Shown here piece after piece: positions 5,177 to 56,366 of a stretch of 64,000 nucleotides of DNA. Below the pieces are notes generated by a model, which had not been told where the DNA came from, did not search any database, and was given only the letters and a program-made list of their open reading frames with translations. Positions within the stretch are counted from its first letter, which is position 1. Every line of letters begins with the position of its first letter. A program made the translations under genes and the position numbers. The DNA is from a bacterium (GTDB taxonomy: Bacteria > Bacteroidota > Ignavibacteria > UBA10030): NCBI GenBank assembly GCA_043803945.1, contig JAZDJN010000048.1, forward strand, positions 24,124-88,123, written 5' to 3'.

Positions 5177-6760
5177 ATGAAGAGGATTGATGAAATAGTG
5201 CCATTGAACGATGAACTCCCAAGCTCATTTGCGGATAGGCTTGGCGTTCTCTACTCTTCCCATGTCACAGAAATGCACAAGAAGAAGCACGGTCAGTTTT
5301 TTACTCCTGTTGATATTGCACATTTTATGGCAGGTCTGTCTGATTGTCAAAAATCTATCGTGAGAATCCTGGACCCAGGCGCTGGTACTGCTGTCCTGTG
5401 TTGCTCGTTAGTCGAGAGGCTAGCGAAAGAGAATCGCAACTTGTCTCACGTTGAAGTTATCGCCTATGAAACAGACGAGAACCTTGTTTCACTAGCCCAG
5501 CAATCACTATCCTATTTGAAGAGTTGGGCTGCACTTCAAAAGATTCAACTTTCCTTCATTCTCCTGGTATCTGATTTCGTCCTAGCCAACTCGGACACAC
5601 TAGAAAACCAGGATCGGCAACAAGAATATTTCGATATAATAATTTCCAATCCGCCTTACTTCAAGCTGCCAAAGTCTGATGGCAGAGTGAGAGCAGCATA
5701 CTCCATTGTTCATGGGCAACCAAACATCTATTCAATTTTCCTTTTCACGGCTGCCACACTCTTGGACCAGAACGGACAACTTGTTTTCATTACTCCCCGC
5801 AGTTTTGCATCCGGATCATATTTCAGACTTTTCCGGGACAGGTTCTTCTCACTGGTTCAACTTAATGCAGTCCATCTTTTTGATTCACGGAAAGAAGCGT
5901 TCCAAAGGGATGAAGTTCTCCAAGAGAATATAATCATTTCGGCACATCGTAAAATGTCTCACGGTGACCGTACGAAGCTTAGAGTGTCGTTCTCACACGG
6001 GTTCAAAGATTTGCAGCAGCGACAAACGAGAGAATTCTATCTTGACGAGTTGCTTGACGCAAATTCATACCAGAAGATACTGCATTTGCCAGCCTCCGAC
6101 CTCCAAACAAAGGTTATCCGTCTTTTCAAGTCCTGGCAAGGCAGTCTGAATGATTACAACATTCAGATTTCCACCGGTCCAGTCGTTTCATTCCGAGCCA
6201 AGAGATTCATTCATTTTCATCCCAAAGATAGACTTTCGTTGGCTCCCCTTTTTTGGATGCACAATACTTCGAAGATGCAGTTGAGATGGCCGCTAAACAA
6301 GACTGGCAAAGGAGAGTATATCCAAGTTTGTGAAGAATCCCTTTCTCTTCTTATATTTAACAAGAACTACATTTTTCTTCGGCGCTTTAGTTCTAAGGAC
6401 GATGCAAGTAGGCTCATTGCAACTCCCTATTTTGCTGATACTGTTGAGGCTGACCTGATCGGCGTGGAGAACCATCTGAATTACATTTACCGACCAAAGG
6501 GGCATTTAGAACGAAACGAAATTCTCGGTCTCGCTGCCCTGCTGAACAGCAATCTTTTTGACACCTATTTTAGAACATTCAACGGCAACGTTAACGTGAG
6601 TGCAACAGAATTGCGACAGATGCCTCTACCGCCACTTGAGACTATCAAGCAAATTGGCAACGCCATCATTCTTCAGAACGATTTTTCACAATCAAATGTT
6701 GATGACATTATCGAACAGTTCTTTGAACTAGAAAAGGAACTCTCTCCTGCATATGAGTAA
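5177..6760 (+). CDS. N6-adenine DNA methyltransferase (PstI/BsuBI/Eco57I-like gamma class)
   Basis: GQFFTP, ILDPGAGTA (motif I), ISNPPY (motif IV); overlaps the downstream endonuclease. Confidence 0.92.
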   Translation: MKRIDEIVPLNDELPSSFADRLGVLYSSHVTEMHKKKHGQFFTPVDIAHFMAGLSDCQKSIVRILDPGAGTAVLCCSLVERLAKENRNLSHVEVIAYETDENLVSLAQQSLSYLKSWAALQKIQLSFILLVSDFVLANSDTLENQDRQQEYFDIIISNPPYFKLPKSDGRVRAAYSIVHGQPNIYSIFLFTAATLLDQNGQLVFITPRSFASGSYFRLFRDRFFSLVQLNAVHLFDSRKEAFQRDEVLQENIIISAHRKMSHGDRTKLRVSFSHGFKDLQQRQTREFYLDELLDANSYQKILHLPASDLQTKVIRLFKSWQGSLNDYNIQISTGPVVSFRAKRFIHFHPKDRLSLAPLFWMHNTSKMQLRWPLNKTGKGEYIQVCEESLSLLIFNKNYIFLRRFSSKDDASRLIATPYFADTVEADLIGVENHLNYIYRPKGHLERNEILGLAALLNSNLFDTYFRTFNGNVNVSATELRQMPLPPLETIKQIGNAIILQNDFSQSNVDDIIEQFFELEKELSPAYE

Positions 6761-7700
6761 AATCAAGGAAGCTCAAACAATCCTGAAAGAATTTGGCTTG
6801 CCTGCAGCGCAGCAGAATGATATCTCCGCTTTGACTCTACTTGCACTGTGTGGTGTCACAGAGGCCAATACTTGGAAGGATGCCCAGAGGTCTAGTCTTA
6901 CGGCTACCAAAGGAATAATGGCGTTTATGGCCAAGCGGTACAAACGGCGATATGCCCCTAATACCCGAGAGACTGTCAGACGACAGGTTCTTCATCAATT
7001 TGTCCAAGCGAGGCTCGCTGACTACAATCCGGACAACCCTCAACTGCCAGTTAATAGTCCAAACGCGCATTATGCTGTATCTAAGCCAGCGTTGGAAGTC
7101 ATCAAAACTTTCGGAACGAAGAAATGGCAGTCGGCAGTGACAACATTCAAAGCGGAGGTTGGCGAACTCAAGAAGCGGTATGTTAAAGACAGAGACCTCA
7201 CGTTGATTCCTTTGAAACTATCGGATGGCAGGATTATCCGCCTCTCAGCAGGGAGACACAATCAAGTCCAGGCAGCCGTCGTCAATGAGTTCGCATCTCG
7301 TTTCGCAAAGGGTTCGATACTTCTCTATCTTGGAGATGCAGCAAAGAAAGACCTCCATTTGGATTCCAAGATGCTGAAGAAGCTGGGCATTCCGATCGAT
7401 CAACACAATAAACTTCCAGACGTTGTCATTTATGAGCCTAACAAGAATTGGCTATACCTTATCGAAGCTGTAACGTCCCACGGCCCAATTACTCCAAAGC
7501 GCATTCTTGAACTCGAAGAGTTCCTAAAGAATTGTTTAGCTGGAAGGGTGTACGTCTCGGCTTTCCCTGACTTTGCAGAATTCAAGAGACATACTTCTGA
7601 CTTGGCTTGGGAAACAGAGGTTTGGATTATGGAACATCCGGATCATATGATTCACTTCAACGGCGACAAGTTCATCGGGCCAAGATCGTCCAAGGTATAG
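6753..7700 (+). CDS. BsuBI/PstI-family type II restriction endonuclease
   Basis: YAPNTRETVRRQVLHQF, KLPDVV, LIEAVTSHGP, AWETEVW, HMIHFNG family motifs. Confidence 0.93.
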   Translation: MSKIKEAQTILKEFGLPAAQQNDISALTLLALCGVTEANTWKDAQRSSLTATKGIMAFMAKRYKRRYAPNTRETVRRQVLHQFVQARLADYNPDNPQLPVNSPNAHYAVSKPALEVIKTFGTKKWQSAVTTFKAEVGELKKRYVKDRDLTLIPLKLSDGRIIRLSAGRHNQVQAAVVNEFASRFAKGSILLYLGDAAKKDLHLDSKMLKKLGIPIDQHNKLPDVVIYEPNKNWLYLIEAVTSHGPITPKRILELEEFLKNCLAGRVYVSAFPDFAEFKRHTSDLAWETEVWIMEHPDHMIHFNGDKFIGPRSSKV

Positions 7701-7947
7701 CTTCGATAAGTTACTGGGCATAACACGATCGACAAAGATACCCCCGTTGTTGATAGAGAATAGTGGTGGTCGCTCAGGTTTTTTGCTCGCGAGAAAATGA
7801 ATCCTTCATAGCTCTTACCCCTGCGTTGATGGGCGAACCATTGCATCCGTCCGTTCACTTTAATACATTTGCTCCCACAGTGCCTCGATCCCTGAGACGA
7901 TTCTCTGTTGAACCATTCATCTCAGACAACAGAAAGGATGGTGCGTC

Positions 7948-8241
7948 ATGAAAGCCGGCCTCTTTTTTACAGGCTCAGGACCTATTCTCATTCTCACCTC
8001 ATACGATTCCCTGATCAATCCAAATCTTGTGAAGAAACTGCATGGGAAAGGAATAAAGAAATACCTTGCATTTGAGGTCCCAGAGGAAGTTGTGAAACAG
8101 CAATATGGGACACATTACGATTTGACTCTGAGCGATCTGAAGCAGGAAGATGATTTGCGGGTGCTCGATTACGACGGGCATCATATCTTCAATCATTTTT
8201 CCTTGAAACAACTTCAGAATCCTCTTGTGTTTGAACCATAG
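7948..8241 (+). CDS. Conserved small hypothetical cytosolic protein
   Basis: 97-aa ORF with RBS (AAGGA); FTGSGPILILTS and DLRVLDYDGH look like conserved blocks. Confidence 0.75.
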   Translation: MKAGLFFTGSGPILILTSYDSLINPNLVKKLHGKGIKKYLAFEVPEEVVKQQYGTHYDLTLSDLKQEDDLRVLDYDGHHIFNHFSLKQLQNPLVFEP

Positions 8242-37900: not shown

Positions 37901-39457
37901 TTATGCAATGCTGGCTGTGATGCTCAGGAGTGAGAGGGGCGGCAAGATAAACTGAAGCGATGACTCACTTGTTATGATGGTATACGCTTTTGGAGTAATG
38001 GCATCAGGCTGATGAAATGTGTTTGCTGTATTAAAATCATCATGCGAGAGTATTTGTGCGCTGGCGATCTTGAGGTTTCCTCCGCGAATGGCACAGGTGA
38101 CGCTGATCGGACGTTCAGGAAACGGATTGACAGCGGTGACGATAAGTTCCTTCTGGTCCCGTGAAGCAGAGATGGAGAGATCACATTCTGAAGCGGGCGC
38201 ATGATCGACTTTCAATGAATGTCGTGACTGATGCGCCTTGCACATCATGAACGCCCAGTATGCAGGTGTGCGGATACACTGCTCATTGTGGGTGAGGAGC
38301 AGAGCGTGAAGGACATTGGCGATCTGCGCGACATTGCACATCACAAGCTTGTCGGCATGACGGTGAAAGATATTAAGGGCCAATCCGGTAGCAACAGCCT
38401 GGCGCATCGTACTCCACTGGAATAACATGCCAAACCGTGATTCGTCTTCCGGCGACGATTTATCCCACAATCCCCACTCATCAATCATCAATCCTGTGCG
38501 TCGCTGTGGATCCGCAACTCCAGTGTTAATCTCATCCAGGAACTCACCCTGCTCAACAATGGCCCTCTCCAGGTCAGCAAAGGTGGCGAGCTGTTCCTGA
38601 AGCGTAGAGGTAGTATATGAGCGTGAAGTGCTCTTTCCCCAGGAATAGAAGTGCATTGCATAGCCATTAATCCGTGCGGCATATTTCCGCTTATGTGCTG
38701 CGAAAAACCGGCGTGTCCATTCCATGTCGCTGCTCTCAGGCCCGCATGCGATGAGAAAGGGATTGACACCGCCGTAGGCTCGAAGATAGGCAGAGAAGCG
38801 ATTATACTGGGCTGCATATTCTTCGGGAGTCATCTGACCGCCGCAGCACCAGCTTTCATTGCCAATGCCCCAATAGGAAACACCAAAAGGCGCGACAGAG
38901 CCATTGGCAATTCTCTCATTCGAAAGAGTACTCCCACCTGGAAAATTACAATACTCGATCCAGTCGCGCAGTTCCTGCGGTGATCCGGAACCGACGTTCC
39001 CAGCCAAGTACGGTTGGGCGCCGATGAGGCGGCACAGGTTAATGAATTCATGAGTACCGAAGGCATTATCTTCAATCACCTGGCCCCACCACAGATTGAC
39101 GCGTTTCGGCCGTCGTTCTGAAGGACCGATACCATCGCGCCAATGGTAGTCGTCGGCAAAGCATCCGCCCGGCCAGCGCAGGACAGGGACACCAAGCTCC
39201 CGGAGATATTGGATGGCCATGGAGCGGAATCCATTGATGTTTGGAATTGGCGACGATGGCCCAACCCACAAGCCGCCATAGACACAGCTCCCAAGATGTT
39301 CGGCGAAATGTCCATGGAGTTCCGGTTTGATGATTCCAATTTCCTGGTCCAGGTCGATGATCAGTTCGCGCTTTTCATAGGCAAGCGGATTGAACTGCTG
39401 CGGTTCATTCATTCCGGATGCCGGATTCAGATTCCACTGTGGGGGTGTAGTAGCCAT
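37901..39457 (-). CDS. GH51 alpha-L-arabinofuranosidase
   Basis: GHFAEHLG.CVYGG, RWPGGCFAD.YHW, FGTHEF, GNE, DEWG. Confidence 0.93.
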   Translation of the reverse strand: MATTPPQWNLNPASGMNEPQQFNPLAYEKRELIIDLDQEIGIIKPELHGHFAEHLGSCVYGGLWVGPSSPIPNINGFRSMAIQYLRELGVPVLRWPGGCFADDYHWRDGIGPSERRPKRVNLWWGQVIEDNAFGTHEFINLCRLIGAQPYLAGNVGSGSPQELRDWIEYCNFPGGSTLSNERIANGSVAPFGVSYWGIGNESWCCGGQMTPEEYAAQYNRFSAYLRAYGGVNPFLIACGPESSDMEWTRRFFAAHKRKYAARINGYAMHFYSWGKSTSRSYTTSTLQEQLATFADLERAIVEQGEFLDEINTGVADPQRRTGLMIDEWGLWDKSSPEDESRFGMLFQWSTMRQAVATGLALNIFHRHADKLVMCNVAQIANVLHALLLTHNEQCIRTPAYWAFMMCKAHQSRHSLKVDHAPASECDLSISASRDQKELIVTAVNPFPERPISVTCAIRGGNLKIASAQILSHDDFNTANTFHQPDAITPKAYTIITSESSLQFILPPLSLLSITASIA

Positions 39458-47293: not shown

Positions 47294-47788
47294 TTAGCTA
47301 TTTTCTCTCATCAGGCGTTTCAGAATCTGAATTTGTCCGGCATGATATACATCGTGTGCTGCAATCCCGGAGATGATCATCCGGTTGCTCACGGTAGTTC
47401 CTTTTGGGATTATTGCGAGATCATTGTCGTTGAATTGTGCAATCGCCTCACACATTGAACGATGGCATGATTGCAACAATCCGATGTCTTTTTTCCATGC
47501 CGCGGCAGTCGTCTCTCCAGGTTGTACAATCCAATTGCTGCCCTTCAGCGGGAAAAAACCTTTTTTCTCGCCCAGGATTCTGCGCCGGACGATGTATTTC
47601 CAATAGGCACAGTGGATGACGATCTCCCAGATGTTGTGTCGATCCGCTGCAGGGCGCCAGGAGGCATCGCGAACCGTGAGGCCGCGGATCGAGCCGCGAA
47701 GGTTTGTTCCATGCCACGCTTTTTTATGATAGGCTTCCTCTATCGTTTCTAAGAGGAGCATCACCGCGCGATTGTTCTTCTGGGTCAT
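47294..47788 (-). CDS. DinB/YfiT-family protein
   Basis: AWHG, HNIWEIVIH.AYWK, HDVYHAGQI. Confidence 0.9.
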   Translation of the reverse strand: MTQKNNRAVMLLLETIEEAYHKKAWHGTNLRGSIRGLTVRDASWRPAADRHNIWEIVIHCAYWKYIVRRRILGEKKGFFPLKGSNWIVQPGETTAAAWKKDIGLLQSCHRSMCEAIAQFNDNDLAIIPKGTTVSNRMIISGIAAHDVYHAGQIQILKRLMRENS

Positions 47789-47801
47789 CAGCGACCTTCA
47801 T

Positions 47802-47838
47802 AAAATAAATACGCCCCACATTCCCGGTGTTGTGGGGC
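47802..47838 (-). terminator. Rho-independent terminator downstream of the bTHX gene
   Basis: GCCCCACA/TGTGGGGC stem followed on the minus strand by TATTTATTTT. Confidence 0.7.
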
Positions 47839-47878
47839 ACTGATCATTTGAAAGGAAATCCCGTTGAAAGAATATTCA

Positions 47879-47995
47879 CAGAGACTCAGAGGAAACTCAG
47901 AATAATCTATGGTGGATATATCCCAAGCGTTCCAACGATCCTTCTTCCGTGTCCCGTGCGATTGAATGATACAAGGATTGACGAACGAGTCTCTG
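47879..47995. ncRNA. Candidate structured RNA in the bTHX 3' region
   Basis: CAGAGACTC/GAGTCTCTG closing stem, inner CGTTC/GAACG and ATCCTT/AAGGAT stems, GAG-GAAA-CTC hairpin. Confidence 0.3.
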
Positions 47996-48008
47996 GTACC
48001 TTCGTACG

Positions 48009-48134
48009 CTATTGCTTTGTCTCTACCGCTTTCGGTTTTTGAACTTTGACGTTGGTCTTTCTTTTCTGGCGGTACTTACCATATGAACCGGCGAAAATCT
48101 TACCCCGTTTTGATCGTTTATCACCTTTTCCCAT
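48009..48134 (-). CDS. 30S ribosomal protein bTHX (41 aa; not in the ORF track)
   Basis: Manual translation MGKGDKRSKRGKIFAGSYGKYRQKRKTNVKVQKPKAVETKQ*; RBS AAGGAG. Confidence 0.93.
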   Translation of the reverse strand: MGKGDKRSKRGKIFAGSYGKYRQKRKTNVKVQKPKAVETKQ

Positions 48135-48267
48135 GAACATCTCCTTATGGATTTGAATAATTCGATAATAGTATGGATTTGATCGCTACCTTAAACATAA
48201 AAAGAGGTGTTCGAGGAAGCAAGTGGCAAATAAAAGAATTCAGACTCACTGAAACACAAAGTAAAAA

Positions 48268-51063
48268 CTAAAATGGATTAAAGGTAATTTCTATTTCATC
48301 CTTTAATCCAATATCAGCCAGTGATTGGCGAAGCTCATTTGTCAGGGCGCTTAACTTATCCGTTTGTCCATCCATCGTGATGGAAATATGTATACTCAAA
48401 TTTTCTGCATCTCTCACCTTAGGGAGAATTTTACTTCCAAATCGATTCCATAACTCAGGCGGAATGGAGCCACTCACCTGTAGTTGTACAATTGCTGCCG
48501 GCGTTATGATAGTTGAGATGGAAGTTGGCTCAAGACTCTCCTGTTCACCTCCAATGGGCGTTATCGGAGTTTCTACGATTGAAGATGAAGGAGGTACATT
48601 GCCGCTTTTGAGTTTTTCAGCCTTTTCCTTTTTTAGAAGAAACACATCCTTATCAAAAGCTACTTCTTCATGCGAGAGTGGTTCTTTGTACCATACATTT
48701 TGATATGTGCCATCCGGATTGCTCCCGGAAGCCAAACCAAAATCTCCCTTCTCAACGAATTCCGGAATTCTTATTGTCAGCATTTTATCGGGATCAATGA
48801 GCCGGGTGAGTGAGCCGTTGAGAAAGCTTTGACGCAATCCAAGCAGCGGCCATATTCCACTTTCCTTCAAGGCTGTAGGCCAATTACGTTCGAGGTACCC
48901 AACACCGACAGATTCATTGAGCAAACCCTCAGATCTAAGAGCTGTAATAATTCTTCCGGTGAGAGTTTCCAACCGGCTTCCATGACCGGCACTCAGGTCT
49001 ATTGCTTTCATTCCATCGCGGCTTTGAGGATCGAGAAGGTATGCAAAGCGATAGCTTGCCCAGACTTCATCACGTGCCTGTTCTTCAGCATCCTTCGAGT
49101 TGATTATGACCTTCTTCTTTTCATCCGGATCGAATTCTCCGCCCAATGTGCCTGTTGCGATTTCTTCCTGGACCCGATTCCAGGCAAGCCACATTTCGAC
49201 CTTTTCGCACAGTGCTCTTCCTGGCTTCCTTAGACACCACACAATCGAACCCGGATATATTCTCGGTGAGTTCCCTTTATTTCTGCACCAATCCTGAAGT
49301 TGTTTTCGTATGCCACTCTCTCCTTGTACGGAGCTGACCGAAGCATCGTTCCATTCAATATCTGGATCCATTACGGCAAGTGTAAGGCGTGGAGAATCGG
49401 GAACTGCAGAGCTCTCTTCCGGAAAGAGCTGCAGCGGAACAAGCGCCCCTTTTTCAAATTCCTTTTTGATGAGAGAACGAAGAACTTTCTTGACTTCATC
49501 ATCGCCGAGAGAAGCCTTTCTATCGTTCACAACCTTTTTCAGTGTCGGTTTGAAACCAAATTGGTAACCGTCGGTTCCAAATTTTCTCAGGAAGAACGAT
49601 CTCGATTCGAGTGTTGAGGCTCCTGTATCAATAGATGTCGTATCGATATTTGGTTCACCAAGAGCAAAGCGAAGCTCCGGAAGATGGGCAACTTTCTCAC
49701 GCATTCCTCCGGAAGATTCAAAGAATATTGCCGTTGCTAATCGCTGATGAATATCCTTCAACGGTCCCTTCGTATCGGCATCCAATGCTTTTGCATGAGA
49801 GAACTGACCTACAATATCAGAGTCTATTGCTGGAACAAGCCGTCCTTCACCGAGCTGGCCGATAACGGTCGCTTGAAAATCGGGTACGTGTAACGGGGCA
49901 GAACCGATGGTGATAAGAGCTTCTTTACGTGCTTTCGTAAAATTGTCTTTGTAGACCCACGATATCCATTGAGCAAGCATGGCAAGCGTACCGCGTGTTT
50001 GTTGATATTGTGGTAAAGTTTGCCATTTCCGCTGAAAGACAGAGAGTGTCGATGGATGGAAAGGATAGCACGACTCGAATCGATTTCTCAGGAACTCTTT
50101 TGCTTTCGTTTCTGTGTTTGCCGTATCAACCGTTGTCCATTCGAACGGTAATTCAGCACGACGTTCAAAACACCAATCGGAATATTCCTTCGCAACAGCT
50201 TTACGGATTGACTCCTTACCAATATCCTCGAATAGACGTCTCCGGACAACTTCACTGATTTCGGATTCATCATTTGCGATAAGGTCTTTGGCGACACGCC
50301 TGACCACTTTTGTGATCTTCTCCTGCCACTCCAAATCCTTCGACGTCATTTCGACCTGGCTTCGAGGAAGGCTTATAACTGTAGCACAATTCGTCACACC
50401 GGTCATGGCGACTGTGAGATTTTGGATGAAGGAGTGGAATGATTCTGCCATATCACGATGGCGGTTCATGAAGTTCAATACTTCATCAAAGAGGATAAGA
50501 ACGTTACCTCCGCCAATCTTGAAGAGCTGGGTAAGTGTATCAGTACCCGGGGGTGATGTCAGAGCTTTTAAACCAAGAGCTTCGACACCTTCCTTGCCTG
50601 CGATTTGAAAAGCGATATCTGTCCAAGGGGTTTCTCGTCCTGGTTTAGGATCCCACGCGTTTCCAACAAAGACTGCTACTTTTGCTTTGGGCGGTTCTGT
50701 AACACCAGCATCGGAAAGCAAAGCTTTGACATCTGTATTGCGAAAAGCAATCTCACCGTTTTTTGCTATGTGATAGAGCGCTGTAAGAGTGTGTGTTTTA
50801 CCGCCGCCAAATTGAGTGACGAGAGTGAGCACCGGTGAGGTGTTCTCAGTTTTGCCAGACAACCGACGCTCAACCATTCCGGCGTGTTCACGAAGTGCAC
50901 GTGTGAAGTATGTGCGCGAGAAGAATTTCTCTGCATCCCGATAATCGAGCGGTGCAGTGCCTGCCACTACCTGCTCGAGCGCGATTGCAAATTCATCGGG
51001 ATTGAATGAGCGTCCTTCGCGGACCTCTGCTCGTGGTGTTGCTACTTTATACCAGGGTTCCAT
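48268..51063 (-). CDS. DUF499-family AAA+ ATPase
   Basis: PW..VATPR.EV..G, T.FGGGKTH Walker A, ILFDE Walker B, YPFHP, QQTRGTL. Confidence 0.9.
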   Translation of the reverse strand: MEPWYKVATPRAEVREGRSFNPDEFAIALEQVVAGTAPLDYRDAEKFFSRTYFTRALREHAGMVERRLSGKTENTSPVLTLVTQFGGGKTHTLTALYHIAKNGEIAFRNTDVKALLSDAGVTEPPKAKVAVFVGNAWDPKPGRETPWTDIAFQIAGKEGVEALGLKALTSPPGTDTLTQLFKIGGGNVLILFDEVLNFMNRHRDMAESFHSFIQNLTVAMTGVTNCATVISLPRSQVEMTSKDLEWQEKITKVVRRVAKDLIANDESEISEVVRRRLFEDIGKESIRKAVAKEYSDWCFERRAELPFEWTTVDTANTETKAKEFLRNRFESCYPFHPSTLSVFQRKWQTLPQYQQTRGTLAMLAQWISWVYKDNFTKARKEALITIGSAPLHVPDFQATVIGQLGEGRLVPAIDSDIVGQFSHAKALDADTKGPLKDIHQRLATAIFFESSGGMREKVAHLPELRFALGEPNIDTTSIDTGASTLESRSFFLRKFGTDGYQFGFKPTLKKVVNDRKASLGDDEVKKVLRSLIKKEFEKGALVPLQLFPEESSAVPDSPRLTLAVMDPDIEWNDASVSSVQGESGIRKQLQDWCRNKGNSPRIYPGSIVWCLRKPGRALCEKVEMWLAWNRVQEEIATGTLGGEFDPDEKKKVIINSKDAEEQARDEVWASYRFAYLLDPQSRDGMKAIDLSAGHGSRLETLTGRIITALRSEGLLNESVGVGYLERNWPTALKESGIWPLLGLRQSFLNGSLTRLIDPDKMLTIRIPEFVEKGDFGLASGSNPDGTYQNVWYKEPLSHEEVAFDKDVFLLKKEKAEKLKSGNVPPSSSIVETPITPIGGEQESLEPTSISTIITPAAIVQLQVSGSIPPELWNRFGSKILPKVRDAENLSIHISITMDGQTDKLSALTNELRQSLADIGLKDEIEITFNPF

Positions 51064-51099
51064 TAGTTTTTGCTTTCTTTCTCTTTCGACAGGAAAACA

Positions 51100-51600
51100 C
51101 TAACCAATTCTCACTGCAAGAGCTCGTAGCATATCGAATGTGTTGACTGATTGCACACCAAATTGTCTGCAGATGTTAGGGATTGGTATCTTTTTCTTCA
51201 CCTGTGGATCGAGGGTCTCGTTCGTTGTAACGATATAATCCTTAGCTTTAGCATATGCAACAAGCCAACCATCTGGATCGTTGTCGGCAAACCTTGCTTT
51301 AGCTGCATCCATAAATTGATGGTTATTGAGCGCCCAGTTCACAATATCCCTGTACGCGGCTATCACATCTGCGTCATCCGTCGATAAAAAGGAGTGACTG
51401 AGGTTGCCTTGAGTTATCCATTCTGCCAGTCTATCATTTCCTGCTACGAGTTGTTCCCTGATTCGATCAATGCTTGCGATCTGGTGATCATCAGCTAACC
51501 TTGTAAGATTATCCCAGAAGGATGGAACTAAATCAAAAGCGTAATAATTACGTGCTGCTGTGATGAATACGTCGGCGTCAAGTAGGTAATGGTGAGGCAT
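51100..51600 (-). CDS. DUF4411 family PIN-like protein
   Basis: YLLDADVFI.A...YY.FD..P.FW, D.WLVAYA, KIPIPNIC; TAATG overlap with the IrrE gene. Confidence 0.88.
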   Translation of the reverse strand: MPHHYLLDADVFITAARNYYAFDLVPSFWDNLTRLADDHQIASIDRIREQLVAGNDRLAEWITQGNLSHSFLSTDDADVIAAYRDIVNWALNNHQFMDAAKARFADNDPDGWLVAYAKAKDYIVTTNETLDPQVKKKIPIPNICRQFGVQSVNTFDMLRALAVRIG

Positions 51601-52754
51601 TAACCTGCATACTCCCCAAGAATTCTCGATGCGAATTCATCATATGTCTTTCCTCGCAAACTCGTAAGCTTGAACGCTTCGGTATAAAGCAGTTTTCCTT
51701 CTCTTGTTGCTCGAATGATCCTCTCGGCGAAGGAACGCCCTACGCGCCTTGCTTGTGTTGCATAGAAATCGCCACCATCTTCTGTTTCTTCTCTTTTTCT
51801 ATGCTCATCAGTCAGGTATGCTTCATAAAAGAGGAAGAATTCATTCCGAGTAATAAGACCAAGATCTTTTGCTCGACGTGCAGCAACAAGTGCACTTACT
51901 TTGAAATGCCGCGCGATAGATTGAAACGGTTCTGCGTTTCCACGGACGGAAGTCCAAAGAGCTCGTAACTCGACTTCAGGTACAAGAAGTTCAGCCGCAA
52001 CTCGATTACAGGCCTGTTCAATCTCATTGTCTGCCGGTTCAAGCCTTCGCAGATCGAATGCAGCACTCTGACCAAGCCAAATGTGAGCAATCTCATGGGC
52101 GAGTGTGAACATCTGAGCCGCTTTACCATCTCTCGCGTTGATGAAAACGAGCGGTGCATATTCATCCACTAGAGTAAAACCACGAAACTCCTCGACCTTC
52201 AGTGGCCGACGGTTATTATTTCCGACAACACCATTTGCCATGACAAGAATGCCAGCACTCTCCACAGCACTCTCCAGTGCACGAAGACCTTCCTGCCAGG
52301 TTGCTTTTGAGGCTGCCCACTCTGCGCTCAGTCCTAGTGTTGTGCGAATATCCTGGGCTACTAATTTTGGATCTTTGCCTAAAGCGGCAGAATTCACAAA
52401 CCATAAAGGTGGACTGCCTTCTTCTTGAAGAAATTCTCGTACATACTCCTGGCGTACCTGCATCGTGTGAACAGTGTCCAGCAGTTCAGGGCTTGGCCTT
52501 CGCGGAACCTGCTCGACGACCGTGCGATAATGCGGAATCGGTAAACGCTCCTCAGGGGGCGCAGGAAGGAAGAAATAGCCGAACGGGGCATGAGTCGCAC
52601 GAGCGAAAGATTCAAGTTGATGAAGAGTCGGATCAATACTCCCCTTTAACCATTCGGTATACTTCGGAAAACGAATCTCGATAATCTCTTCGCTTAACTC
52701 AGAGCGTTCCACTGCCCAGAGTAAGATATCTTTATTTACGGCGACTCTTGCCAT
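51600..52754 (-). CDS. HTH-ImmA/IrrE family metallopeptidase
   Basis: N-terminal HTH (PTLHQLE.FA), FRGF, FTLAHEIAH (HExxH), E..CN.VAAE.L.P. Confidence 0.92.
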   Translation of the reverse strand: MARVAVNKDILLWAVERSELSEEIIEIRFPKYTEWLKGSIDPTLHQLESFARATHAPFGYFFLPAPPEERLPIPHYRTVVEQVPRRPSPELLDTVHTMQVRQEYVREFLQEEGSPPLWFVNSAALGKDPKLVAQDIRTTLGLSAEWAASKATWQEGLRALESAVESAGILVMANGVVGNNNRRPLKVEEFRGFTLVDEYAPLVFINARDGKAAQMFTLAHEIAHIWLGQSAAFDLRRLEPADNEIEQACNRVAAELLVPEVELRALWTSVRGNAEPFQSIARHFKVSALVAARRAKDLGLITRNEFFLFYEAYLTDEHRKREETEDGGDFYATQARRVGRSFAERIIRATREGKLLYTEAFKLTSLRGKTYDEFASRILGEYAG

Positions 52755-52836
52755 TTTTTTATGGAGTTTTCTTATTGATATATCTGAATAATAATCTACA
52801 AAACGATTACAGCATTGGCAAAATCATAATCTCACT

Positions 52837-55800
52837 CTATCGCCTTGGTACAGCAAGCAACATCGCATCCAACAACCGTTTCTCTTCAGAGTTTTTAGGA
52901 TACAAGGCTGAGAGCGCATTTGCGAGACGCACAAAATCGGGACTGCGTTTTTGCTCAGCTTCGATGAGGGCTTTGAGGGCTGCGGATTTACCGCTTGCCT
53001 GCAAAAGCATTGCCGCGTGGACACGGTCGAGCGTAGTCGCTTCGCGAGTTGAAGGTTCATCGTTCAAGGTTGAATGTTTCCTTTTTAACTTTGAGCCTTT
53101 AACTTTCAACTTTGGACTTGTAATTTCAAACGGTTCATCCCCCGGAAAGAGTATCATCTGTGATTTATCGGGTGAGCGCTCAAGCTTTGCAGCAATTTCG
53201 GACGATCCTTTCTCTCCAAACAATTGTAGTGCCCTTTCTTTTACAGGAAGAAGACGAACAACTCCTTTTTCTATTTCAATGATACGCCCCTTCCATTGTT
53301 CGAGGTCGATGCCGAGCGGTTGGGCAAAGCGACGTGCAACATCAAACTGCAGAGAGTAGCCGGATTTACGATTGCCGAATGTCGATTGCCGATTATCATC
53401 GTCTTCCTCATCTTCGGCATCGCCTGTATCTGTGTTATCAGTGTAATCAGTGGTCGCTGTGGACATCAGAGTCCATAAGAAAAGCGCTGTAAGACGGGCA
53501 TCTTCCTCCAAAACACCTGATGCGCCATTTATGGTGAGCGAAGTCGAACCTTTCCGGGCGCGAGCTTCGGCTGTGCCAAGGATTTGCTCAAGCGCGGTAC
53601 GTCCAACGACTTCCCACACTTTTTCTAAGTACTCTGCAAGCTCGACCGTTCTTCCTTCAGCGGTCTCAACTCGTTCATAACGACTAAAGAGCTCGAGTGC
53701 TGGACCGATGCAAGAAAAAACAAGGTCTGCTCCGTGGATGCCTTCTTTGTCTAAGCGTTCCATCCAATCGCCAATGCGATCGGGAAGTTCACGAAGAATG
53801 TTTGACCAATCACCGACACCGGCACTCTGAGACCGAGGCCGACAAATGAGATGTACACTAGTACCTAATGCAGCTGAGTCCCTCGCTCTCAATCGATGTG
53901 CTTGCTCGGTCGCAATCGGCCAAGAGCCTGTAACTACCCAACCTCCCACCATCATTCCTGTCAAGAGTGCTTCCCACCCTTCAGTTGTTTTGTGGGCAAA
54001 GACTACACAACCAATACCATTATCAACGAGAATTCTCCTTCCTTCGGAGAACGCTATTGTCATCTGATTTTCAAAAAAAACCTTATCCTTGGGTATTCCA
54101 TTGAATTTCTGTGCCTCATCTTGAATGATCTCATCTGACTTTGGTGTTAGCGGATTTGTCATATCAAACGGATCCCGAAGCAATGAAAATCCTGTGAGGC
54201 TCCTTTTCATCCATACAAGAAAGAAATCAGATAATGAGGAATATGGGATCGCGTCATAATAAGGTGGGTCTGTAAACCAAGTAGTTACTGATTGATCTGC
54301 AAGGGGACTGGCTTGAGCTTTGGCAATTTGAGTGGTAGCACTTGCCATAATACCACGAACCGATTCAGCACCTGCAATCAAGTTACGCAAGCATACCTCG
54401 AAGCTAGCGCTTGAGCTTGATGTTGATACACCTTCTGCAAAATCCCAAGCGGGTTTCAAGCGTCCATTTGATAAAACATTGCGTGGACATTCGGCTATTG
54501 GTTCCCATGGACATATTGTGTTTGAAAGATCTGCAAGTTTACCTACCACCAGAGCCAGAAGTTTGCGTTCAGGCAAATCCTCATCAAGTTTAGAAATGGA
54601 ATTTGAAAGAGTTATTAATGCCAATTTTTGTCTCGCTGTAAACAAGTCGCTCCAATTGATCATTCCATATCTTTGCACCCTAAGACCAAGCGTACCTTGC
54701 GGTGGCAGCGTTTCATCTGGTATCACACTTAATCCATTCTCTAATTTCTCCGTCGAGAGTTGTCCTATTCTCTTCTTCGCCTTATCGATCGCATCAAAAT
54801 CTTGAGTTGTTGGCAATCTGTATTGTCGACCTGTTTCCTGTTCGACTAGCGTAACGACCGCGAGGAGACATGCATCGTCAGCACCACCATGTCGGGGAAA
54901 TAACTGTTGACTTACTCGCTCAACAGGAAGAATCGTGTTACAACAAAGACATTTGGCATTGCCTCGATCAACCGTACCCTTGGGGACATCGATATCTTTC
55001 TTTGGCTCAAATACTTCAAACTCTACTTTCGGAATACTATTTCTTCTTTTCAAAACAGAATATCGTAAAGCTTTTTTACGTTTCCCTTTTTTTGAAAGCC
55101 AAAAAGATCTTATTAATGGAATTTCAGCACCACAATTTGGCGATTCGCAGATTACTGTTCGTGCCCATAGATAAGCAATCGGTTTCGAACCATCTGGATC
55201 AGTGGGATAAAACTCTGCAAGTTCTTTTTCTGCTTCTGCTTTGATCTCTGCTCCAACACGCCGTAGCTCATCGGCAAGTTTCTTACCGTGCCGTGGTATA
55301 TCCTCAAGTAATACTTTCTCAATGAGACACGCCACCGGATTAAGATCACTGGCAAAAGCATCGCAACCAAGGCGGAGCGCTTCAAGGGGAATCGAACCAC
55401 CACCGGCAAATGGATCTACCACCAGCGGTGTCTCTTCCGGATGAGCGGCTTTTACAAGTCCACGTGCAATTTCAAGGTGCAATGGGCTTGCGGAGTGATC
55501 CCAGTTGGAAAACTCGGCGATGAACTTCAAAAGCAAAGAACGTAGGGTTAATGGTTGAAGGTTGAAAGTTTCAGGTTGAGGACTTTGAACATTCAACTTT
55601 GAACTCTCATCTTTATAGACTCCCGTATATCTTTTCGCCAACAACTCCGCCGCTTTTGTGATAAACTCTTCCGGGCAATGCTCATCACAAGGATCAGGCA
55701 GAAGCAATCCTAACAACACAGACCGGCATGCCGCTAACGGCCGCCGTGCCCACCACAGATGCAGCGTAGAGGGATGTCCGTGCCTTATAGACTTTTCTCG

Positions 55801-55872
55801 CGCCGATTGTTTGCTCACTTCTGCAATCGGGAAATCAACTTCTATGAGACGTTTGCACTCTTTTGGAATCAT
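52837..55872 (-). CDS. DUF1156 adenine DNA methyltransferase with Zn ribbon
   Basis: LHLWWARRPLAACR, DPFAGGGSIP, DLNPVA, C...C/C..C Zn ligands, FTDPPYYD. Confidence 0.93.
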   Translation of the reverse strand: MIPKECKRLIEVDFPIAEVSKQSAREKSIRHGHPSTLHLWWARRPLAACRSVLLGLLLPDPCDEHCPEEFITKAAELLAKRYTGVYKDESSKLNVQSPQPETFNLQPLTLRSLLLKFIAEFSNWDHSASPLHLEIARGLVKAAHPEETPLVVDPFAGGGSIPLEALRLGCDAFASDLNPVACLIEKVLLEDIPRHGKKLADELRRVGAEIKAEAEKELAEFYPTDPDGSKPIAYLWARTVICESPNCGAEIPLIRSFWLSKKGKRKKALRYSVLKRRNSIPKVEFEVFEPKKDIDVPKGTVDRGNAKCLCCNTILPVERVSQQLFPRHGGADDACLLAVVTLVEQETGRQYRLPTTQDFDAIDKAKKRIGQLSTEKLENGLSVIPDETLPPQGTLGLRVQRYGMINWSDLFTARQKLALITLSNSISKLDEDLPERKLLALVVGKLADLSNTICPWEPIAECPRNVLSNGRLKPAWDFAEGVSTSSSSASFEVCLRNLIAGAESVRGIMASATTQIAKAQASPLADQSVTTWFTDPPYYDAIPYSSLSDFFLVWMKRSLTGFSLLRDPFDMTNPLTPKSDEIIQDEAQKFNGIPKDKVFFENQMTIAFSEGRRILVDNGIGCVVFAHKTTEGWEALLTGMMVGGWVVTGSWPIATEQAHRLRARDSAALGTSVHLICRPRSQSAGVGDWSNILRELPDRIGDWMERLDKEGIHGADLVFSCIGPALELFSRYERVETAEGRTVELAEYLEKVWEVVGRTALEQILGTAEARARKGSTSLTINGASGVLEEDARLTALFLWTLMSTATTDYTDNTDTGDAEDEEDDDNRQSTFGNRKSGYSLQFDVARRFAQPLGIDLEQWKGRIIEIEKGVVRLLPVKERALQLFGEKGSSEIAAKLERSPDKSQMILFPGDEPFEITSPKLKVKGSKLKRKHSTLNDEPSTREATTLDRVHAAMLLQASGKSAALKALIEAEQKRSPDFVRLANALSALYPKNSEEKRLLDAMLLAVPRR
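53047..53122. repeat. In-frame heptamer inverted array (GGTTGAA...ACTTTGA family)
   Basis: agttgaa ggttcat cgttcaa ggttgaa ... actttga gccttta actttca actttgg. Confidence 0.75.
53363..53397. repeat. In-frame heptamer tandem array (GATTGCC family)
   Basis: gatttac gattgcc gaatgtc gattgcc gattatc. Confidence 0.75.
53428..53454. repeat. In-frame nonamer tandem array (encodes TTDYTDNTD)
   Basis: atctgtgtt atcagtgta atcagtggt. Confidence 0.7.
55546..55609. repeat. In-frame heptamer inverted array, second copy of the GGTTGAA family
   Basis: ggttaat ggttgaa ggttgaa agtttca ggttgag g actttga acattca actttga actctca. Confidence 0.78.
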
Positions 55873-55876
55873 AGGA

Positions 55877-55911
55877 AATTGCCGATTGTCGATTTGGGAT
55901 TTTCGATTGAT
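55877..55911. repeat. Heptamer tandem array (GATTGTC family) just upstream of the methyltransferase start
   Basis: aattgcc gattgtc gatttgg gattttc gattgat. Confidence 0.7.
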
Positions 55912-56166
55912 ATGCTTCTAATCGTTTTTATTATTGAAAGTCCTTTAAGATTGATTGTTTTTGCCACTAATCTACTCATAAGACTTGTTCATGAGCAGAT
56001 TAATTGCATCCTGAGCATATTCAACATTAATTGGCTCACCAAAGTATTTCGTGATCCCATTAATGGCTCAGTGAACCTATTCTTTCCAGTCGGCTGGCAA
56101 CCGCTTCCAGCGAAGTAACCAGCTCGTTAGCATTCAAATAAATAGAGGACCGAAAGTGAGTCAGTT

Positions 56167-56305
56167 TGTCCCTCAACATGTCCATCTCAATGATAATTAG
56201 TCGTTCATTTCCTTTGGAGATGGACATCATGTCCGGCAATGTGTCCATCTCGATAAAAACGTTAGTGTTTTAGGCCAGGGGGATGGACTTACTATTGTCA
56301 TGTCC
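56167..56305. repeat. TGTCC/GGACA motif cluster with two 63-bp-period inverted-repeat units
   Basis: TGTCCATCTC at 56179 and 56242, each followed after 28 nt by G(A/G)GATGGAC. Confidence 0.6.
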
Positions 56306-56366
56306 AATTGGATGTGACAAATACCGATTCTCATCGGTTAATATCTTGCTGTCCGAAAATTGCTGA

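Follow-up and report, generated by a model that had tools for sequence, protein, structure and literature searches.

Short repeats lying in frame within bacterial genes have been described in several settings. The available text of PMC3733652 reports in-frame repetitive extragenic palindromic sequences (REPs), often several per gene, and together with PMC3184786 describes intragenic REPs and Rickettsia palindromic elements (RPEs) as enriched in DNA replication and repair genes and suggests that they are neutral in loops. Arrays of the TAACTGA heptamer most commonly end 1 nt before a start codon, with a minority inside open reading frames (PMC4679880, as far as available), and in-frame REPs inside RAYT genes are described in the accessible portions of the REPtron literature (PMC6006769, PMC5581495), where PMC6006769 discarded over-long proteins as fusions or annotation errors. 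The Hma system, since renamed the Type-1 BREX-related system in the sections at hand of PMC12839542, forms loci known as hotspots where defence genes insert (PMC11232893, likewise in part). Here we analyse hmaB, the DUF1156 methyltransferase gene of a predicted Hma locus in a 64,000-nt stretch of contig JAZDJN010000048.1 (the window), for which an earlier note, made from the letters alone, had proposed that short-repeat patches are scars or landing pads of a cassette exchange that diversifies defence genes.

We find that the patches are a real feature of hmaB, and that the weight of the argument lies more with its homologues than with the window's own gene, as homologues carry whole nuclease modules in frame at shared loops. 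In-frame REPs are already known, and it is the recurrent insertion of whole modules at shared loops that appears to be the new part; in-frame REPs and start-proximal heptamers are described in the literature we searched, and we found there no account of several module families in shared loops in frame, in a search that did not extend to most papers under subscription or to the supplementary files of PMC3733652 and PMC12839542, which may bear on the point.

Repeat patches in and before hmaB

The gene and its patches are as follows.

hmaB, 52837..55872, minus strand: DUF1156 amino-methyltransferase, 1011 aa, intact; Pfam DUF1156 1.5e-23, PADLOC HmaB 1.7e-107.
Start array, 55874..55908, minus strand: five degenerate AATC-type heptamers, untranslated, last base 1 nt before the ATG.
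Patch 1, 55546..55609, minus strand: a pair of heptamer arms placed head to head (aa about 88-109) that adds a net 18-19 aa relative to the nearest relatives.
24-nt insert (loop 3), 53530..53553, minus strand: clean insert, aa 774-781, containing an 18-mer.
Nonamer array, 53427..53453, minus strand: three copies where the acidic linker begins; the weakest patch, Tandem Repeats Finder score 38.
Heptamer array (loop 4), 53363..53397, minus strand: five heptamers of the start-array type over the basic end of the acidic linker.
Patch 5, 53047..53122, minus strand: two heptamer arms head to head, of the patch-1 unit type, over the basic linker (+3 aa).

The period-7 arrays lie where the earlier note had placed them and stand far above shuffled sequence. 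Scanning the 64 kb at lag 7 yields 6 segments, of which all but one lie in or at hmaB, at four places, whereas 30 codon shuffles give 0.27 on average and never more than 1; a combined lag-7+14 score reaches 28-31 at the same four places, with 0.025 segments of at least 28 expected from 40 shuffles. Tandem units are 70-88% alike by Tandem Repeats Finder. No housekeeping gene carries a patch above chance, as the note had remarked, but one chance-level period-7 segment (38464-38496) does lie in a housekeeping-type gene; a marginal period-7 signal in hmaA (61117-61157) is likewise at chance level and corresponds to no indel relative to loci L002 and L003.

Patches 1 and 5, 2.5 kb apart, share one unit type and are both two-armed and head to head, as had been claimed of the inverted pairs, and patch 5 is an inverted repeat with 28-nt arms that are 75% complementary; patch 1 folds into a hairpin (z -2.3), but the fold of patch 5 is no better than chance (z -0.1). 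A second heptamer type is common to the 53363-53397 array and the array before the start. The three nonamer copies are present, but the signal is weak: the window yields 3 lag-9 segments where chance would give 0.57, and the array, whose period is a multiple of the codon, sits inside an acidic linker. The 18-mer, which the earlier note labelled a REP-like half site, occurs in 1 copy in the 64 kb at up to 3 mismatches, and the surrounding 53522-53565 folds like its shuffles (z 0.57), with no palindromic stem-loop of the REP kind; the only support for this patch is its place within a clean 24-nt insert in a loop whose length is otherwise nearly constant.

The note had begun the gene at 55911 and set one array at that start codon. 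The array exists, but it precedes the true start: homologues align from the equivalent of ATG 55872, so the 39 nt added 5′ are untranslated. Keeping the frame is what is expected of whatever survives inside an intact gene. A phase-variable methyltransferase switched by simple repeats was considered and rejected, the arrays being degenerate and devoid of any perfect tandem tract able to slip.

The patched loops in homologues

We aligned HmaB with its 119 best homologues, and a genome scan gave 4 loci from 233 candidate stretches. Compared with these orthologues, the patches are not conserved protein sequence, the alternative that the earlier note had raised against itself; they lie in columns of 1-26% identity, with the beginning of the loop-3 block as the exception. 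In the conserved N- and C-terminal blocks HmaB shares 80-97% identity with its nearest relatives, P0070 and P0095, and these two and P0031 lack all four in-gene patches. Loop 1 has 44 aa in the window's HmaB, compared with 25-26 in P0070, P0095 and P0031, and only 1 of the 119 homologues is as long; loop 3 has 28 aa against 20 in 113 of 119 (+8 aa). Loops 4 and 5 are only 3-4 aa longer than in the relatives, lengths that are ordinary in the wider set, where 68 and 29 of the 119, respectively, are equal or longer. The expectation that the patches would be indels at loop positions thus holds for two of them, which are net insertions (+18-19 and +8 aa) in variable loops, but not for the other two, which overwrite existing linkers, one acidic and one basic, and preserve the charge character of each.

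An AlphaFold2 model of HmaB, built from a 117-row alignment, has a mean predicted local distance difference test score (pLDDT) of 88.7 and places all four in-gene patches in low-confidence loops, with pLDDT values of 56 at aa 91-100, 51 at the 24-nt insert and below 50 at aa 808-832 and aa 914-938. In-frame, lineage-specific sequence in variable loops that is missing from close orthologues is what characterizes RPE-like intragenic repeats, and this is what hmaB contains. An ESM Atlas search with patch 1 returned DUF1156 clusters only, with scores below 0.8.

At the DNA level, repeats of other kinds sit at these loops in further hmaB genes. In L004, loop 3 holds a palindromic repeat, the acidic linker a second one and the basic linker an array of heptamers; in L001 and L010-L012 the acidic linker contains repeat-like stretches. 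L003 has nine heptamer copies in an array near aa 285. Comparable repeat-like stretches are seen by eye in several protein homologues. In L004, moreover, 90 nt of the hmaB 5′ end are present a second time, at 7911-8000, a short way before the true start, and this second copy is broken by the same palindromic repeat that occupies loop 3 of the L004 gene.

Whole in-frame modules in HmaB homologues

Searching proteins longer than 1085 aa with the first 620 residues of HmaB gave 2024 matches among 7999 candidates. Of the best 120 of these, 66 carry an internal in-frame module, a proportion that is not a prevalence, the set having been chosen for length: 46 have a RAYT, 13 a DUF559 domain (counted from a seed trimmed of host flank) and 9 a GIY-YIG domain, two of them combining RAYT with GIY-YIG. 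The unselected nearest set has a module in 3 of 119, and cluster representatives in 8 of 150. Modules fall at few positions. All 13 DUF559 and 45 of 46 RAYT insertions lie at aa 270-309, with printed junctions near aa 275, so that several unrelated modules occupy one position; GIY-YIG lies near aa 227 in 8 of 9 cases, and there is a single GIY-YIG near aa 198 and a single RAYT near aa 332. Near aa 332 there are also short two-armed stretches without a gene (P0126, P0191, P0170, P0195). The flanks of the modules resemble translated repeats that are distinct for each module type (by eye), and at the DNA level L005 shows a DUF559 domain between repeats within its DUF1156 gene, in a record with several single-base frame breaks. 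Of the RAYT inserts compared with the NCBIfam cut-off, five exceed it and one, that of P0126, falls below it.

The earlier note had expected relatives to carry whole small genes at the patched positions. In-frame modules between repeat-like flanks do occur, but near aa 198, 227, 275 and 332 and, in the sets examined, never in the loops patched in the window. It had also named four-helix-bundle and GxxExxY genes as usual neighbours of such repeats, a putative link; none is annotated in L013 or L014, and the Pfam domains listed for the long homologues include neither, although self-stopped insertions may escape searches with full-length proteins.

On host-protein trees from which the inserts were removed, 59 RAYT or DUF559 carriers require 50-51 state changes against 57 when shuffled, and gain or loss of modules is therefore recurrent, with mosaicism of the gene as a caveat. 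Co-transfer of modules with their host flanks, as in an intein-like homing element, seemed possible at first and was not clearly borne out on closer comparison: carriers do not cluster on flank trees, and flank identity tracks the class of the central region, with a slight excess for DUF559 (0.81 versus 0.76).

A separate feature of the long homologues is an N-terminal extension in 50 of 120, mostly a NADAR domain (e.g. P0003, P0075, P0192); P0192 exceeds the NCBIfam NADAR anti-phage cut-off, and P0230 has DprA.

Modules in PriA

As a control, the same kind of long-homologue search was made with PriA from the window. An in-frame RAYT is present in 104 of the best 120 long PriA homologues (again a set chosen for length, not a prevalence), mostly just before the helicase motif. 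At least two types of RAYT are recognizable by eye at a similar position (P0241-P0355), and in P0243, P0244, P0260 and P0285 a patch-1-like peptide stands beside the RAYT (by eye). The claim that the process diversifies defence genes specifically fails this control, and module insertion is not confined to them.

Exchange of the probable specificity region

Conserved columns place motif I of HmaB at aa 153-159 and its DPPY signature at aa 535-538. The central region is 36-45% identical to that of P0070 and P0095. Following the architecture given in the available part of PMC12839542, aa about 250-620 is probably the specificity region that holds the target-recognition insert, its exact limits being deduced from that scheme. 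Three Planktothrix agardhii plasmids (L010-L012) are 43-73% identical to one another over hmaB nt about 1050-2250 and 83-100% identical in the flanks, and because such flanks surround a divergent centre, it seems that homologous flanks, and not the repeats, mediate the reshuffling of specificity. The window's patches lie outside the swapped region and the exchange boundaries are not at repeats, contrary to the role that the earlier note had given them.

The hma locus and its neighbourhood

Further annotations describe the surroundings of hmaB.

hmaA, 57878..61345, minus strand: Snf2 helicase with C-terminal NOV_C/DUF3883 nuclease; PADLOC HmaA 2e-174, Pfam.
Accessory gene in the hmaA-hmaB gap, 56367..57881, minus strand: deaminase-like domain and RecG-C/HATPase_c_4 domain (Pfam).
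Accessory pair in the hmaB-hmaC gap, 51100..52754, minus strand: IrrE/ImmA-like peptidase; DUF4411 (Pfam).
hmaC, 48268..51063, minus strand: DUF499 ATPase; PADLOC HmaC 1.3e-94.

With hmaA upstream of hmaB, hmaC downstream and three accessory genes between them, the locus has the co-oriented Snf2 helicase-nuclease, DUF1156 methyltransferase and DUF499 ATPase by which Hma or Type-1 BREX-related systems are recognized, and on its gene content it is a predicted Hma system, that is, a DUF499-centred Type-1 BREX-related system. HmaB scores 209 bits with the NCBIfam DUF1156_antiphage equivalog, whose cut-off is 1000 and which may cover another subtype, and a Foldseek search of the HmaB model against the PDB gives nothing at E 0.001, with class I methyltransferase folds as weak matches only.

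Several features of the surroundings stand apart from the patches. The accessory gene at 56367-57881 is a candidate defence effector within the hma operon. At 49324-49347 (minus strand) hmaC has 8 extra aa relative to L001, L002 and L004, possibly a sixth patch that is loosely 18-mer-like; this stretch has no match to the nonamer. Directly 3′ of hmaC, a small ORF at 48009-48134 (minus strand) matches 30S ribosomal protein Thx (Pfam PF17070, 1.8e-9) and marks the edge of the defence island. Upstream of hmaB, at 55972-56269 (minus strand), two short overlapping frames of 69 and 31 aa may be one frameshifted small gene, for which a Pfam search gave no credible match. A second restriction-modification-like pair (a methyltransferase and an endonuclease-like gene, by eye) at 5177-7700 (plus strand) has no period-7 patch. 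A secreted protein with a T9SS-type tail hints that the host belongs to the FCB group. Rfam gives 0 matches over 47500-62000.

Discussion

We favour, as probable on balance, the reading that tolerant loops of HmaB are a sink in which small mobile repeats, and modules flanked by repeats, collect, and that the window's patches are near-neutral remnants or solo copies of them. Surface loops and disordered linkers of HmaB would tolerate foreign sequence; heptamer arrays, nonamers, REP-like palindromes and flanked RAYT, DUF559 and GIY-YIG modules would repeatedly enter them; and selection would purge frame-breaking events, so that only in-frame insertions at tolerant sites survive. The five patches would have been gained after the split from relatives that share 83-97% identity with HmaB in the conserved blocks, presumably from mobile donors, and the head-to-head arm pairs may be emptied modules. 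Entry by short-homology recombination would suit the two patches that overwrite linkers and keep their charge character. Any effect on the enzyme would be small, and the patches are probably close to neutral in this gene. More tentatively, RAYT, DUF559, GIY-YIG and perhaps four-helix-bundle and GxxExxY modules may form one general system of non-splicing mobile protein domains. Such domains would insert in frame into shared loops of DNA-processing enzymes and displace each other, and the five patches would be examples of the short repeat scars that remain.

Several observations weigh against the sink reading. Since no whole module occupies the window's own four patched loops in the homologue sets examined, its patches are putative module remnants at most, and plasmid searches for a donor of the heptamers or nonamer gave chance matches only. 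The homologue evidence is mostly at the protein level, and FastTree trees of a mosaic gene inflate the scatter of carriers. PriA is one control gene whose named carriers are mostly Verrucomicrobiota, which points to few independent events, and in the 64-kb scan the arrays cluster in one defence gene, with the window's priA and other housekeeping genes free of them.

This clustering, four repeat places in one defence gene where every other gene of the 64 kb stays at chance level, is also what speaks for a cassette-exchange system dedicated to diversifying defence genes under selection by phages, with the repeats as its landing pads, as do the alternation of unrelated modules near aa 275, within the variable central region, and the standing of Hma loci as hotspots for inserted defence genes in the available text of PMC11232893. 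We nonetheless consider such a system unlikely, as PriA carries in-frame modules of the same kind, the window's patches lie outside a swapped centre whose Planktothrix agardhii boundaries are homologous flanks, and no homologue examined has a module in the loops patched here. That the modules are functional plug-in domains, a translated nuclease being useful in a DNA-tracking enzyme and the repeats allowing its gain or loss, would accord with their being stop-free and in frame, with the five RAYT inserts that pass the cut-off where P0126 fails, and with both hosts examined, HmaB and PriA, being DNA-transaction enzymes. It strikes us as distinctly unlikely given that a module is present in only 3 of the 119 nearest homologues, that carriers hardly form clades, which suggests short residence, and that the window's HmaB has none, the fusions being known here as sequences.

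A local origin of the patches, by slippage and drift in composition within low-complexity linkers and without a mobile donor, fits loops 4 and 5, acidic and basic linkers that are hypervariable throughout the homologues and of ordinary length in the window, and it fits a nonamer whose period is a multiple of the codon. As an account of the whole we hold it to be very unlikely: a period of 7 is out of step with the codons, patches 1 and 5, 2.5 kb from each other, are built alike in unit type and head-to-head arrangement, the second unit type recurs both within the gene and upstream of it, and the 24-nt insert is not copied from its neighbours.

Across many homologues, HmaB offers fixed positions at which empty, remnant-like and fully loaded states coexist, and as two loops take three or more nuclease families between them, the spread and persistence of REPs, heptamer arrays and single-copy RAYT genes can be studied there by comparison. 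Annotated RAYT, DUF559 and GIY-YIG "fusions" can be recurrent insertions. Were the single system of mobile domains to hold, REPs and orphan heptamer arrays would gain a common role as module ends.

Comparison with described systems

In its gene content the locus is like the Hma or Type-1 BREX-related systems of PMC11232893 and PMC12839542, as far as these could be consulted, with helicase-nuclease, DUF1156 methyltransferase, DUF499 ATPase and interspersed accessory genes in one operon. The patches resemble the intragenic GTAG/CGTC REPs and Rickettsia palindromic elements of the accessible parts of PMC3733652 and PMC3184786 in being short repeats in frame, often twice per gene; they differ in consisting mostly of tandem heptamer arms, in having several unit types and a non-hairpin 18-mer, and in the whole modules found in homologues. 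Like the start-proximal arrays described in the available text of PMC4679880, the degenerate array at 55874-55908 ends 1 nt before an ATG, but the hmaB units are of other types than TAACTGA, and the copies within the reading frame occupy internal loops here and mainly protein ends there. REPtrons, in the portions at hand of PMC6006769 and PMC5581495, share with this family the RAYT with repeat-like flanks, which is the commonest module in HmaB and PriA homologues; the difference is that the RAYT lies here in frame inside another gene, and that the window's own hmaB has the patches and no RAYT.

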